In this document: positions 1,917 to 8,725 of the stretch, in pieces
Numbering within the stretch: the stretch's first letter is position 1
Layout of the letters: each line of letters begins with the position of its first letter
Origin: Candidatus Thorarchaeota archaeon
Lineage (GTDB): Archaea > Asgardarchaeota > Thorarchaeia > Thorarchaeales > Thorarchaeaceae
Assembly: GCA_029858305.1 (NCBI GenBank)
Contig: JAOUFI010000084.1
Coordinates: forward strand, 1 to 10,075
Length of the DNA: 10,075 nucleotides
Direction of reading: 5' to 3'
The notes under the pieces: model-generated
What the model saw: only the letters and a program-made list of their open reading frames with translations
Told to the model about the DNA's origin: nothing
Database searches by the model: none
Program-made: the position numbers and the translations under genes

Positions 1917-2087
1917 CTAAACAGATTCTATCATATCAGAGTTATATTTTCGCGATTGCGATCCGCAGCACCCAGATGTGATCCTTTTATCAGTTATATT
2001 ACATGAAGATACTTTGGAGTAGGCTTCCTTAATGGCTTTCTTTATTTCCTCAGATTCCATTTCGCTGACTTCTTTTCCTTCAGTCAT
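1917..2087 (-). CDS. 56-aa microprotein paralogous to the ArsM N-terminus (C-x10-CC)
   Basis: Manual translation MTEGKEVSEMESEEIKKAIKEAYSKVSSCNITDKRITSGCCGSQSRKYNSDMIESV*. 16 of the first 26 residues are identical to ArsM and CCGSQ is shared. GGTGAT SD 3 nt upstream. Could instead be a duplication remnant. Confidence 0.75.
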   Translation of the reverse strand: MTEGKEVSEMESEEIKKAIKEAYSKVSSCNITDKRITSGCCGSQSRKYNSDMIESV

Positions 2088-2227
2088 ATGATCACCACTT
2101 TCAATGGATTTTCTTCTGATAAATCATAGTCACAGCATAGTGATTGTGAATATGAGCTTCTAGTATTCATTCGATCCATGATTCCACATTTCAGAACTAT
2201 GTTTGTATGAATTCCATTTTCAGTCAT
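2084..2227 (-). CDS. 47-aa hypothetical microprotein (C-x16-CC)
   Basis: Manual translation MTENGIHTNIVLKCGIMDRMNTRSSYSQSLCCDYDLSEENPLKVVII*. AGGTGAT SD 3 nt upstream. Its TGA overlaps the next ATG (ATGA, 2084-2087). It is the first ORF after the divergent promoter. Confidence 0.6.
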   Translation of the reverse strand: MTENGIHTNIVLKCGIMDRMNTRSSYSQSLCCDYDLSEENPLKVVII

Positions 2228-2848: not shown

Positions 2849-3460
2849 ATGCCACGTCCCGACCCAATAACAAAGATTGAGAACGTTGTTGCCTCAGTTA
2901 TTCTGAATCAGCGGTTAGATCTCGATGAGATTGCGGCTACAATGCCCAACGTTGAATTTGATCCCGAGCAATTCCCTGGTCTTGTATATCGGCTCAAGAC
3001 ACCAAAGACTGCAACTCTGATTTTCAACTCAGGGAAGATGGTATGCACTGGTGCCAAGTCAGAGAAGGAATCGAAACGAGCAGTACACAAGATCGTCAAG
3101 AATGTTAAAGAAGCTGGAATAGAAATCACAGGCAAACCGATTATCACCGTCCAAAATATTGTGGCTAGTGCGAATCTGGGTGCAGAACTGAACCTTGAAC
3201 TAGCCGCAATGAAACTTGAAAATACTCTCTATGAGCCCGAACAGTTCCCTGGTCTGATCTACAGAATGAGAGACCCCAAAGTAGTAATTCTCTTGTTTGG
3301 CTCTGGAAAACTTGTCATAACAGGTGCCAAGTTTGAACCTCAGATTCAAGAGGCGGCAGTGAAGGTAATGGACCGTCTTTTGGAGCTTGGTGTTATGAGA
3401 ATTCCTGAGGGCGAAGACTGGGGCCAAGTAAAAACAGATGATGAAAACGAGGACTGGTAA
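2849..3460 (+). CDS. tbp: TATA-box-binding protein
   Basis: Two TBP repeats: ENVVAS...PEQFPGLVYR...LIFNSGKMVCTGAKS and QNIVAS...YEPEQFPGLIYR...LLFGSGKLVITGAK. Acidic C-terminal tail as in archaeal TBPs. Confidence 0.98.
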   Translation: MPRPDPITKIENVVASVILNQRLDLDEIAATMPNVEFDPEQFPGLVYRLKTPKTATLIFNSGKMVCTGAKSEKESKRAVHKIVKNVKEAGIEITGKPIITVQNIVASANLGAELNLELAAMKLENTLYEPEQFPGLIYRMRDPKVVILLFGSGKLVITGAKFEPQIQEAAVKVMDRLLELGVMRIPEGEDWGQVKTDDENEDW

Positions 3461-3987: not shown

Positions 3988-4170
3988 TTGGCAAAACGGA
4001 AAAATGAAGTGAAAATTGATGATATCATGGTTCGTGTACCAAGAGCTCTTCAGAAGAGATACGAAGGTCTCCTAAAGCGGGATTCGTGGAGATCCTTTCC
4101 TGCATTTGTGAGAGAAGCAGTGAGAGCATCTCTTGAAAAATATGAAACCCTTGAACGAGAGCGCGATTAA
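3988..4170 (+). CDS. Ribbon-helix-helix (CopG/Arc/MetJ-like) DNA-binding protein
   Basis: IMVRVPRALQKRYEGLLKRDSWRSFPAFVREAVRASLEKY shows the alternating beta strand, helix, S-x-x-x-F-V-R-E-A-V helix pattern. Start is either TTG 3988 (after GAGAGGA) or GTG 3973. Confidence 0.75.
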   Translation: MAKRKNEVKIDDIMVRVPRALQKRYEGLLKRDSWRSFPAFVREAVRASLEKYETLERERD

Positions 4171-4230
4171 TCGCAGATTCCACTTCCTTGATGCACGAAC
4201 TTTTGGAATTCTAACGACAAAGATGGCGAT

Positions 4231-5334
4231 TCATTTCTTCTTAGATTTCTTTGTATCTTTCTTTGATTCTTTTTTCTTGGTCGATTTCTTTGCTACATTA
4301 TTACTCTTGATCTTCGTATCAGACATCTTGATCTTCTTTGATGACATAACGATCTCTTGATTCTGTGCTTTTGCCCAGAGATCTACAGTCGCTGTTTGAT
4401 CTTCAATAATCTTGAGATTTGGTCTCTTTATTTCAGTAATCTGTTCCTTCTTAATGATTTTCGCGCCCAGGCGCTGTGCAAGGCGTAGAATTCTGACAGT
4501 AGATCTTGTCTGAAGAGCTTCATTAAACATGATAACAGGCAAGATATAGGCCATTACAAAGAATGGAAGACCAAGTGTCCAAAGAAGACCAAGTGTCCCC
4601 TGATAGATGACTAGTCCTGTTAGTTCGTTTGGTGGGATGGTTCCCTGGAGTATAGGTAGAATCAAGGGATTATAGAATTGGCTCAGAAACATTGTGATTG
4701 GGTAAGCTAGCAGAGCATATCCTCCAAGCATATTCGCAATCCATCGACCCACACCCTGAGTATCAGGAGTTTGTCGCAATTCCAAACTATCAGACTTAAG
4801 ATGGGTCACAACGCCCGCATCATTTAGTATCCAGGTGGGCATGAAAAGAATTAGTGCAATCGGAACAAAGAGTAGAGCACTCATTAATGAAAGCCCAGCC
4901 TCGTGCAAAGGCGCTATTTCCGCAATAGGAGCATAACCAAATGGAAATAATATGTTCTTAATGACATCACGAAACAGCTGGGATGATGCCACACTGAATA
5001 AAGCTGGAGCAGCCGCCCTTCGGATAATCTGGGTTCCATTAAAGTCCCTCCCTATGTTCATAATGTCCATTTCGTAGCGGGCGGACTTGACAATTCTGGT
5101 GATGACAAGAAGCACAACAGCCGCAGGGACTGCAAGAATAACATATTCAATCATGAAGATTGGGAATGCGATGATCATGATAGTAACAATATCATTTCCA
5201 AGAGTTTCGCTTAGCATTGTGGGAAAAAGAGATGTGGGTGGGACTGGCTCTGTTATTGTCATGATAAGTTGCACGGCAACAGCCATGCCTGCTACAAACA
5301 TGAAAGTCGGGAGTATGAACCTTGCTTTTCCCAT
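4231..5334 (-). CDS. Hypothetical polytopic membrane protein with Lys-rich C-terminal tail
   Basis: Long ORF with about 6 hydrophobic segments. The last 38 aa contain 17 Lys. ATG 5334 preferred over the track start at 5346. Confidence 0.8.
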   Translation of the reverse strand: MGKARFILPTFMFVAGMAVAVQLIMTITEPVPPTSLFPTMLSETLGNDIVTIMIIAFPIFMIEYVILAVPAAVVLLVITRIVKSARYEMDIMNIGRDFNGTQIIRRAAAPALFSVASSQLFRDVIKNILFPFGYAPIAEIAPLHEAGLSLMSALLFVPIALILFMPTWILNDAGVVTHLKSDSLELRQTPDTQGVGRWIANMLGGYALLAYPITMFLSQFYNPLILPILQGTIPPNELTGLVIYQGTLGLLWTLGLPFFVMAYILPVIMFNEALQTRSTVRILRLAQRLGAKIIKKEQITEIKRPNLKIIEDQTATVDLWAKAQNQEIVMSSKKIKMSDTKIKSNNVAKKSTKKKESKKDTKKSKKK

Positions 5335-6769: not shown

Positions 6770-8725
6770 ATGGGATTCGTTGTGACTCGGAAAAGACTCA
6801 TTGTGTGTGAGATCTTAATTCTGGCAATGCTAGTTCTAATCATACCTCCCGCTACAGTCTTCTGCCATGATATAGCGAACCATCAAGACACTCATGATAG
6901 ATACATCAGTGCTAGTGACGTGATAATCATAAGTGATAATGATTGGATATCACAAGCATGGCCGGGTAACGGGACAATTGAATCACCGTATATAATCGAT
7001 GGGATTAACGAGGATTATGTAAAGATCTCTAATTCGACGAAATGGTTTGTCATTCAATTTTCAATGGTTCATGAACTAATACAATTTATCAATGTTACAA
7101 ATGGAAGGATTGAGTTCTCAATATTTCGAAGCTTGAGTGTTTATCAGTCAACGAATGTAACAATAGTTGGCAACACACAAGATGTCATTAGCCTGGACTT
7201 TGACTCATGCAATCACATTCTTATCGCAAACAATTCATTAAATGGAGTAGGTGTGCGCTATGATGGGGACAAAGGAATCACTACATCGTTCTCCTGTGAT
7301 GTTAGATTCCTAAACAACACGATAGGAGATTTTTACACTGGAATTGACATAGTCAATTCTTCGGACTGCTACATCCAAAAGAACTACATCACAATGTGTG
7401 GAATCTACACAGCAGTTACACCAACCCAACCACCAGTTCCTTTAAACGAGCGCGCATTCTCGCTCTCACAATCAGAATTTGCAACAATTGAAGGTGGAGG
7501 GATTAGGCTAGAGAATTGCACTAATTCGAAAATCACTAACAACACCATCGAAGAAAACGAAGGTAGTAACATTTTCGTGGGTACTAGCACTGACATTCTA
7601 ATCTACGATAATAGCATGACCAAGAATCGAAAGGGAATGATACTTCAAGAATGTACATCATTTAATATAACCTCAAATCTCATTGACCTTGGATTAACTC
7701 TATACTCATGTTTGTCTGGTGTTGTCACACACAACAGACTCCTATACAATGGACTTTTGCTTGAGGGAGCTTTAGAATGCCTAGTTCATTCGATTTCCAA
7801 TAATACTGTGGATGAGTCCCCAATAATCTACCTTGCTAATGTCAATTCTTACGCTATGGTATCTTCGACAGTAGCACAAGTGATTATTATCAATTGCACA
7901 CAGGTCATCCTTCAAGATGTAGCAACTGAAAACACCTTGGGTGTTCAGGTGATGTTTTCGGAGGCTTGTAGATTTCGATATGTTTCAAGTGGATATTTCC
8001 TCATTAGAGGTTGCTACGATGTGATGCTTGAAGATTCGCGTATTTATGGCTGGTCCGGATATGGTGTCGCAATTGATTCGTCTCTAACGGTGTTCATTCT
8101 AGAGAATTACATATCCTGTGGCATTCTAGTTCGGAATTACTCAAATAAGGTGTTTGTTAGAAATAATACACAGAGCGGAGCAAGAAGTAGTGCAATTAGA
8201 GTAGAGAGTGATTCTTCAGAGGTATTTATTGAACGCAATGATATAAGGATGTGCGGAAGGAACTCAGAATATTACTGGTACTATTCATACTATCCAGCTA
8301 TCCTTGTTATGGGCACAGACGGTTCTATAACAGAGAATACAGTTGTGGATAATTATGGGATTGGAATAGCTCTTCATGGTTCGAACATAACAGTTTGCTA
8401 CAATATCATCGCCAGGAATGGTCAAGGAAATGCTCTTGACCATGGTTCAGGTAACTTCTGGGATGATGGTGAAAGCCGTGGAAATACGTGGGGAGATTAT
8501 ATTGGATTTGGATATTATTACATTCCTGGAAGCGCGGGAAGTATCGATAGATATCCAAGTCTCAGCTCAGAGTTTATGGAACCCTATGTGATCATCACGT
8601 GGGCAGTCATTATTGGCACTCCATTGACATTGATTATCTTGGTTGGAATTCTTATCATCCTTCGACGGCGTAATAGAATACAAGCTAATAAACCGGTCCA
8701 AATCAAGAGAGTGGGATTGGGATGA
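6770..8725 (+). CDS. Secreted, C-terminally membrane-anchored right-handed parallel beta-helix (NosD/CASH-like) surface protein
   Basis: Signal-peptide-like N-terminus, WPGNGTIESPYII cap, many 'I.NN.I/T' beta-helix repeats, NFWDDG..GNTWGDY...IPGSAGSIDRYP C-cap, then a TM helix and RRRNR stop-transfer. Many N-x-S/T sequons. Confidence 0.85.
   Translation: MGFVVTRKRLIVCEILILAMLVLIIPPATVFCHDIANHQDTHDRYISASDVIIISDNDWISQAWPGNGTIESPYIIDGINEDYVKISNSTKWFVIQFSMVHELIQFINVTNGRIEFSIFRSLSVYQSTNVTIVGNTQDVISLDFDSCNHILIANNSLNGVGVRYDGDKGITTSFSCDVRFLNNTIGDFYTGIDIVNSSDCYIQKNYITMCGIYTAVTPTQPPVPLNERAFSLSQSEFATIEGGGIRLENCTNSKITNNTIEENEGSNIFVGTSTDILIYDNSMTKNRKGMILQECTSFNITSNLIDLGLTLYSCLSGVVTHNRLLYNGLLLEGALECLVHSISNNTVDESPIIYLANVNSYAMVSSTVAQVIIINCTQVILQDVATENTLGVQVMFSEACRFRYVSSGYFLIRGCYDVMLEDSRIYGWSGYGVAIDSSLTVFILENYISCGILVRNYSNKVFVRNNTQSGARSSAIRVESDSSEVFIERNDIRMCGRNSEYYWYYSYYPAILVMGTDGSITENTVVDNYGIGIALHGSNITVCYNIIARNGQGNALDHGSGNFWDDGESRGNTWGDYIGFGYYYIPGSAGSIDRYPSLSSEFMEPYVIITWAVIIGTPLTLIILVGILIILRRRNRIQANKPVQIKRVGLG

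Follow-up and report, generated by a model that had tools for sequence, protein, structure and literature searches.

The window that we analysed is a stretch of 10,075 nucleotides from a Candidatus Thorarchaeota genome (assembly GCA_029858305.1, contig JAOUFI010000084.1). On its minus strand, a leader ORF of 47 codons (‘orf47’, 2084-2227) is followed by a small ORF (1917-2087), by arsM (1051-1884), which encodes an As(III) S-adenosylmethionine methyltransferase, and by the gene for a two-domain retropepsin-like aspartyl protease (188-1018) that begins 32 nt downstream of arsM. The protease gene is kept downstream of arsM in 21 related loci. On the plus strand, and divergent from the arsM operon, lie the gene for a PadR-family regulator (2308-2679; PF03551 at 1.7e-12) and the TBP gene (2849-3460), which reaches up to 96.6% identity to related loci. 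In one of these loci, L017, the TBP (4686-5293) and protease (6831-7659) genes each match as two overlapping pieces, which points to frameshifts or to errors in the assembly of this contig.

For comparison we aligned the window with 22 related loci, giving 23 in all, and listed the ORFs between the PadR gene and arsM in each. The regulator gene is divergent in every one of the 23 loci, and in its 23 aligned orthologues the N-terminal motif CC-[PA]-P-[DE]-CC-D never varies, while a C-terminal DCxC is conserved in most; we regard the PadR-type protein as a candidate thiol- or arsenite-sensing repressor. Alignment of the 23 loci also delineates a putative divergent promoter/operator region (2240-2305), where two to three imperfect conserved palindromes of the type TATTGGAYRYCCRATA surround an A/T-rich core and TATA-like boxes occur on both strands. 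This region would serve as promoter and operator, and the cysteine-rich PadR-type regulator probably controls the divergent promoter of the arsM operon. A search of the window against Rfam returned no family, and the spacer between the small ORF and arsM shows no unusual RNA fold (z = 0.33).

The gene next to the small ORF is a bona fide arsM. Its product scores 308.7 bits against the NCBIfam model NF008823 (cut-off 263) and matches Pfam Methyltransf_31 at 3.3e-40, the top ten matches in a Foldseek structural search are ArsM structures, and C45, C58, C93, C181 and C231 are invariant across 30 sequences, C58 being a member of the CC pair. The protein is 74-85% identical to its counterparts in about 20 Candidatus Thorarchaeota loci. 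Translation most likely begins at ATG 1884 (277 aa) rather than at the TTG 1899 of the ORF list, since the 22 orthologues all have their start at this point, preceded by the same motif. In the window, this motif is a GGTGAT of arsM’s own at 1888-1893; in 22 of the 23 loci, arsM follows either this hexamer or a version that differs by one base, L005 being the one where it is absent.

The N-terminus of ArsM is of particular interest here. In CmArsM, the conserved cysteines are residues 44, 72, 174 and 224; Cys44 and Cys72 are described as needed for the first methylation and as forming a disulfide, part of a relay that holds arsenic reduced and for which thioredoxin is the proposed reductant (PMC6138428). 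AlphaFold2 predicts for the window’s ArsM a helix at residues 12-28 (block-mean pLDDT 76-87) and disorder for residues 36-92, that is, a flexible arm. Most ArsM N-termini among these loci carry two cysteine clusters (CC..P.Q..SSCC), and the SSSCC motif is present twice in the arms of L014 (from 1462) and L015 (from 1336); small in-frame repeats of the cysteine motif seem common in the ArsM arm.

Immediately upstream of arsM lies the small ORF, which a preliminary description, made from the DNA letters of the window, had singled out as a 56-aa reading frame at 1917-2087. The ORF list gives the identical sequence on the minus strand, with an ATG start, 56 intact codons and a stop. Its start overlaps the stop of orf47 as ATGA, and a Shine-Dalgarno-like GGTGAT (2091-2096, minus strand), which that description had likewise read as intact, stands 3 nt before the ATG, within the last codons of orf47. 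Both the motif at this distance and the ATGA overlap recur in all six loci that carry a small ORF. The encoded protein can be divided into a helix (residues ~12-27), a variable linker, an invariant CCG at 40-42 and a variable tail. AlphaFold2 models the helix at residues 12-27 with a pLDDT of about 83 and leaves the remainder disordered, including the CC pair.

Judged by alignment, the similarity between the small ORF and the ArsM N-terminus is far above chance. BLASTP aligns the two at 38.1 bits and an E-value of 1e-9, with 23 of 63 columns identical and one 17-residue gap, and a profile-to-profile comparison of six small ORFs with 22 ArsM N-termini (hhalign) gives 99.7% with an E-value of 5e-26 over 46 columns. 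Both the helix motif and the CCG motif of the small ORF can be aligned to ArsM N-termini. The alignment offered in the preliminary description stands as well: we counted by hand 16 identities over the first 26 residues, with ArsM read from MTELKK, and both sequences reach S-x-CCGSQ. Pfam finds no family in the small ORF at E<=0.01, and residues 10-49 fall on positions 2-40 of NF008823 with 16.2 bits against a cut-off of 263; these searches detect no methyltransferase domain. When we looked in the small ORF for the four conserved cysteines of CmArsM, a counterpart was present for the first only, namely the CC pair. This equivalence to Cys44 is positional, because the solved ArsM sequences align from residue 79 onward only. 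What the small protein retains of ArsM is the Cys44-like pair and the helix, and nothing else. A predicted complex of the small protein (A2) with the ArsM core (residues 67-277; A5), for which controls were not folded, scored 0.15 and 0.02 against a mark of 0.32, values that carry no weight for or against contact.

The DNA around the small ORF points to how it arose. Alignment of 1900-2110 with 1690-1905 identifies two units on the minus strand, an upstream one (1906-2110) comprising the 3' end of orf47, the Shine-Dalgarno-like motif, the small ORF and the spacer, and a downstream one (1700-1905) comprising the arsM motif at 1888-1893 and the first ~60 arsM codons. The similarity begins about 26 nt upstream of the small ORF’s ATG and takes in GGTGAT and the last codons of orf47, and the repeat period, from start to start, is 203 nt. 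On this alignment, the small ORF is a copy of the first helix and CCG motif of ArsM, left by a tandem duplication of about 203 nt. Because 203 is not a multiple of three, the copy terminates after CCG rather than fusing to or extending ArsM. A younger case is found in L008, where the units are still 85% identical over ~200 nt and a 1-nt deletion after CCG results in a short tail; this locus displays the mechanism of birth directly. The BLASTP match, the DNA alignment, the profile comparison and the L008 case all support the birth by partial gene duplication that had been proposed earlier.

Six of the 23 loci (the window, L002, L003, L005, L008 and L009) have an intact small ORF, 48-56 codons long, between orf47 and arsM. 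In the remaining 17 we found no remnant of a small ORF, and orf47 or the promoter region directly adjoins arsM. Since these 17 loci do without it, among them the nearest relatives both in the 5' part of arsM (L001) and in the flanks (L039, L017 and L019), the small gene is dispensable. The preliminary description had held that absence or frameshifts in close relatives would mark a decaying remnant; the gene is indeed absent from the closest relatives, but its frame is intact wherever it is present.

Beyond these loci, a search of 1.84 billion representative proteins returned three matches other than the query at E<=1e-3, all of 51-54 aa, and a profile search retrieved 17 short proteins of 28-98 aa, a few of which resemble contig-end fragments of ArsM. 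Several of the database equivalents are annotated as ‘hypothetical protein’ in NCBI records of Thorarchaeota or Promethearchaeota. A look-up in the ESM Atlas gave unnamed clusters only, and a near-length word search with the single small protein returned the query alone. With the seven further small ORFs contributed by the database searches, the family comprises 13 sequences. In their alignment, E14, C40 and C41 are invariant and V7, E9, A18, Y23 and G42 are conserved in at least 90%, Y23 being kept in 12 of the 13. The window copy does contain all three cysteines listed in the preliminary description (Cys29, Cys40 and Cys41); their conservation, loss of which was to count against a function, holds for the C40/C41 pair (13/13) but not for C29, a column in which the window copy alone has a cysteine.

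The small ORFs show two sub-groups. Group A, of 54-56 residues with a ..QTV-like tail, contains the window, L002, P0007, P0008 and P0003. In group B, the tail ..EESK corresponds to the arsM start region read in another frame; L005, P0002, P0005, P0015 and P0016 make up the sub-group with this tail. In L005, the small ORF (4116-4274) overlaps the ATG of arsM by 20 nt, and arsM has no GGTGAT of its own there, an arrangement that suggests coupling by termination and reinitiation. In the copy of L009, most of the helix is missing.

The leader ORF has a much wider distribution, with equivalents of 39-47 codons in 20 of the 23 loci (L001-L013, L017-L020, L023 and L039 in addition to the window); it is absent from L014, L015 and L016 and truncated in L006. 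It nearly always terminates in ..NPxKxVIx and overlaps the following start as ATGA. It also has one invariant cysteine and, commonly, a motif resembling S-C-Q-S-S-x-C-G-D. The peptide has no Pfam or NCBIfam match, and its database matches are ‘hypothetical proteins’ of Thorarchaeota or Promethearchaeota, or unnamed entries. With an omega of 0.8-1.1 in three of four pairs, and with differences at the three codon positions of 14/13/9, that is, no third-position excess, orf47 is a frame that is kept around a peptide that evolves near neutrality. We also considered orf47 as an older, decayed copy of the ArsM arm, an idea whose sole basis is a common MTE.K start and identical upstream sequence, and rejected it, as an hhalign comparison between 20 orf47 sequences and 22 ArsM N-termini gave a probability of 1%.

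Upon comparison along its length, the window proves to be a mosaic. From 3460 to ~2281 it is nearest to L039 (82-90% in 120-nt windows), apart from the poorly aligned spacer between TBP and PadR (~2748-2683; 61-62% to L039). From ~2260 to ~1450 it is nearest to L001 and L002, with 75-92% identity outside the small ORF and 63-71% to L002 across it; L017, L019 and L039 reach only 31-63% over orf47 and the arsM N-terminus. Downstream of ~1450, over the 3' part of arsM and the protease gene, L017 and L019 are nearest again. A tree of ArsM residues 71 to the end places the window with L017 and L019 (98/97), L021, another contig from the genome bin that also contains L039, matches the C-terminal part of ArsM at 91% identity, and the 5' part of arsM has a low dS to L002. 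Sliding-window identities, the ArsM tree and dS together outline an approximate recombination tract of ~800 nt (1450-2260) that covers orf47, the small ORF and the 5' part of arsM. Given the mosaic identities and the ArsM tree, this cassette seems to have entered the lineage by recombination with an L002-like donor, and the small ORF would therefore travel with the cassette.

A tree of the 13 small ORFs and 23 ArsM N-termini, which is weak because it rests on 55 columns, bears on whether they had one origin or several. The copies of the window, L002, P0007 and P0008 group together (95/88), apart from all 23 ArsM N-termini, and L008, L009 and P0012 fall across a 99/95 split, beside ArsM arms of their own type; the copy of L008 pairs with the arsM of that locus (73/87). 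The best tree unites ten of the small ORFs in a clade (72/95, which is not firm), and forcing all 13 together lowers the log-likelihood by 22.1 (AU p 0.058). At least two births, or gene conversion, appear likelier than a single origin, and the small ORF probably had more than one birth. The length of 56 codons, the stop position, the length of the spacer, the 203-nt period and a 17-residue deletion relative to ArsM are common to the copies of the window and L002, which hence look like descendants of one small ORF.

This pair allowed us to ask how the small ORF evolves. Over 56 ungapped codons, the NG86 method gives a dN of 0.338 and a dS of 1.435 between the window and L002, a ratio of 0.235 with a bootstrap range of 0.12-0.63, and pairwise maximum likelihood under GY94 gives an omega of 0.216 and rejects an omega of 1 (LRT 10.55, p 0.0012). 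Differences are distributed over the codon positions as 15/16/27; in the helix and CCGSQS block they fall 8/4/14, and in the linker and tail 7/12/13. When fitted apart, the linker and tail have an omega of 0.81 (p 0.76), and for the helix and CC block an omega of 1 is rejected at p 2e-5, in a partition picked after seeing the data and with dS saturated. The constraint appears to sit on the helix and the CC pair, while the linker and tail, which make up half of the peptide, look neutral. In neutral simulations, in which 58 random substitutions were placed on either sequence, the frame stayed open in 6-11% of runs, and frame and CC were both kept in 0.6-1.2%. These results bear out the preliminary description, which had taken divergence with an intact frame as a hint of selection and had proposed dN/dS as the check: for this pair, it is not near 1.

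The other comparisons point in the same direction. Between L003 and L005, an omega of 1 is rejected at p 3e-9, again with a saturated dS. For five small ORFs, IQ-TREE estimates an omega of 0.074-0.076 (lnL -835.25 versus -882.57 with omega fixed at 1 and kappa at 2), a value that is supportive only, since the five may lack a common origin and kappa was fixed too. Several related archaea thus appear to keep the small ORF by selection, a case carried mainly by one 56-codon pair whose dS is near saturation. The small ORF is also the fastest-evolving piece of the tract, with 29 of 56 residues identical to L002 as against 85% for ArsM. Its dS to L002 is 1.44 (window 1917-2087 versus L002:4151-4321), as against 0.34 for orf47 and 0.39 for the 5' part of arsM. 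This fourfold difference from the flanks implies that the window and L002 copies coalesce deeper and are perhaps not strict orthologues; unequal exchange among the repeats is a possible cause. Copies that resemble their own arsM, namely L008 and perhaps L005, may owe their conservation to gene conversion.

On balance, we lean towards regarding the small ORF as a real, translated small-protein gene that encodes a free copy of the ArsM thiol arm. Duplication, the anatomy of the operon and purifying selection can all be read from the DNA, and the reading that fits them best is that of a young, lineage-restricted small protein that would act with ArsM through thiol chemistry. Its history began with the tandem duplication of ~200 nt spanning the ribosome-binding site of arsM and its first ~60 codons. 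The operon of orf47, the small ORF and arsM would be expressed from the divergent promoter in response to arsenic, and translation of the small ORF would be coupled to that of orf47 through the ATGA overlap. Selection preserves the amphipathic N-terminal helix together with the vicinal cysteine pair, which by its position corresponds to the catalytic cysteine in the N-terminus of ArsM (CmArsM Cys44). The product, a free-floating thiol arm, could then capture As(III) by its CC pair and, in contact with ArsM, hand it over to the enzyme. Because each chain offers two thiols, the third ligand of a three-coordinate As(III) site would have to come from a second chain in a dimer, from glutathione or from a cysteine of ArsM, and capture may accordingly involve a helix-mediated dimer or take place together with glutathione. 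As an alternative to hand-over, the small protein may join the disulfide relay of ArsM. The roles put forward in the preliminary description, an As(III) chaperone or buffer for ArsM or a competitive modulator, are hypothetical. More tentative is the proposal, which we consider possible but on the doubtful side, that the thiol arm can work as a polypeptide of its own and that Thorarchaeota have repeatedly (at least twice) recruited partial duplications of the arsM 5' end as a peptide that acts in trans, either carrying As(III) or serving in the disulfide relay, and so tunes the first methylation.

The pattern of presence and absence could also be explained if the copy were a functionless by-product of duplication, which persists because it is young or because it permits translational read-through to arsM, in which case translation itself would count and not the peptide. 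The patchy distribution over six of 23 loci, the degenerate L009 copy and the omega of 0.81 in the linker and tail would all be expected of such a remnant, and orf47, whose frame is kept in 20 of the 23 loci although its peptide has an omega of 0.8-1.1, illustrates that a frame can be maintained here irrespective of its product. In L005, moreover, translation of arsM seems to depend on the small ORF. The window’s arsM, however, has its own GGTGAT behind a 32-nt spacer, so that coupling is not required there. A by-product would likewise not be expected to show an omega of 0.22 with neutrality rejected, a third-position excess concentrated in the helix and CC block, a CC pair invariant in 13 of 13 copies and Y23 in 12 of 13, or a frame and CC pair that survive together in only about 1% of neutral simulations. 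We therefore consider this explanation unlikely, if still to be reckoned with.

A different challenge is that the constraint might be borrowed, through repeated gene conversion from the 5' end of arsM and with no selection on the small protein itself. The tract is demonstrably recombinogenic, and conversion would suit the L008 copy, whose DNA matches the arsM of its locus at 85% identity and which groups with it (73/87), and the L005 copy, which agrees with the ArsM encoded beside it at 36 of 52 residues. It suits the pair that carries the selection argument poorly: the paralogue dS between copy and own arsM is 2.4 in the window and 1.1 in L002, both copies have a 17-residue deletion in common, as well as a tail that is absent from ArsM, and together with P0007 and P0008 they stand apart from the 23 ArsM N-termini (95/88), which makes conversion an improbable account. 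More improbable still is the ArsD-like metallochaperone suggested by the preliminary description, with an As(III) site made of C29, C40 and C41. The three cysteines of the window copy recall those that ArsD is reported to use (Cys12, Cys13 and Cys18; PMC12415280), but with C40 and C41 alone invariant and C29 found in one of the 13 family members, such a site would be peculiar to the window. Pfam gives no match for the small ORF, ArsD included, and none to ArsA among the 11 ORFs of the window that were scanned with it.

Current descriptions of arsenic biomethylation present a cycle run by a single enzyme, which depends on thioredoxin or glutathione (PMC6138428), and arsM genes of Asgard archaea are noted as a recent observation (bioRxiv 10.1101/2022.11.20.517286). 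Our literature search, the scope of which left most subscription journals outside, returned nothing on a stand-alone ArsM N-terminal peptide, an arsM leader ORF or an arsenic regulator of the PadR type. Were the peptide to work with ArsM, arsenic biomethylation would gain an accessory factor, and the disordered N-terminal cysteine arm of ArsM would be a separable module. Should it act as a carrier or in the relay, the locus would document the birth of a functional small protein from the flexible arm of an enzyme. The scope of these implications is limited to a lineage-restricted and dispensable gene. Whatever its function, the locus offers a natural series for the birth of a small gene, from the young copy in L008 through the selected ones in the window, L002, P0007 and P0008 to the decaying one in L009, and the whole series sits in uncultured Asgard archaea.

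Among known systems, the closest likeness is to the prokaryotic ArsM arm itself (NF008823, the region of CmArsM Cys44), an N-terminal arm that bacterial ArsMs bear as well and with which the small ORF shares the helix motif ..EIK.AV...YS.VA and SSCCG. Unlike that arm, it is a separate polypeptide of 56 residues with no methyltransferase domain; equivalents of Cys72, Cys174 and Cys224 are lacking, and most copies also lack the first cysteine cluster (the C45 equivalent). With ArsD it has in common that it is a small protein with a vicinal cysteine pair, encoded in an arsenic operon and proposed to capture and hand over As(III). The partner would here be ArsM, not ArsA, and the small ORF has no match to the ArsD family in Pfam (E<=0.01) or NCBIfam (E<=1). 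Its short length, its position upstream of the main gene and its ATGA overlap resemble those of coupled upstream or leader ORFs such as orf47; unlike orf47, it encodes a peptide under purifying selection (omega 0.22, p 0.0012), which sets it apart from leader ORFs and uORFs. Finally, microproteins are domain-only paralogues that act on their parent protein. Like them, the small ORF, as known here from its sequence, is a truncated paralogue that has kept one module of its parent and is encoded beside it.
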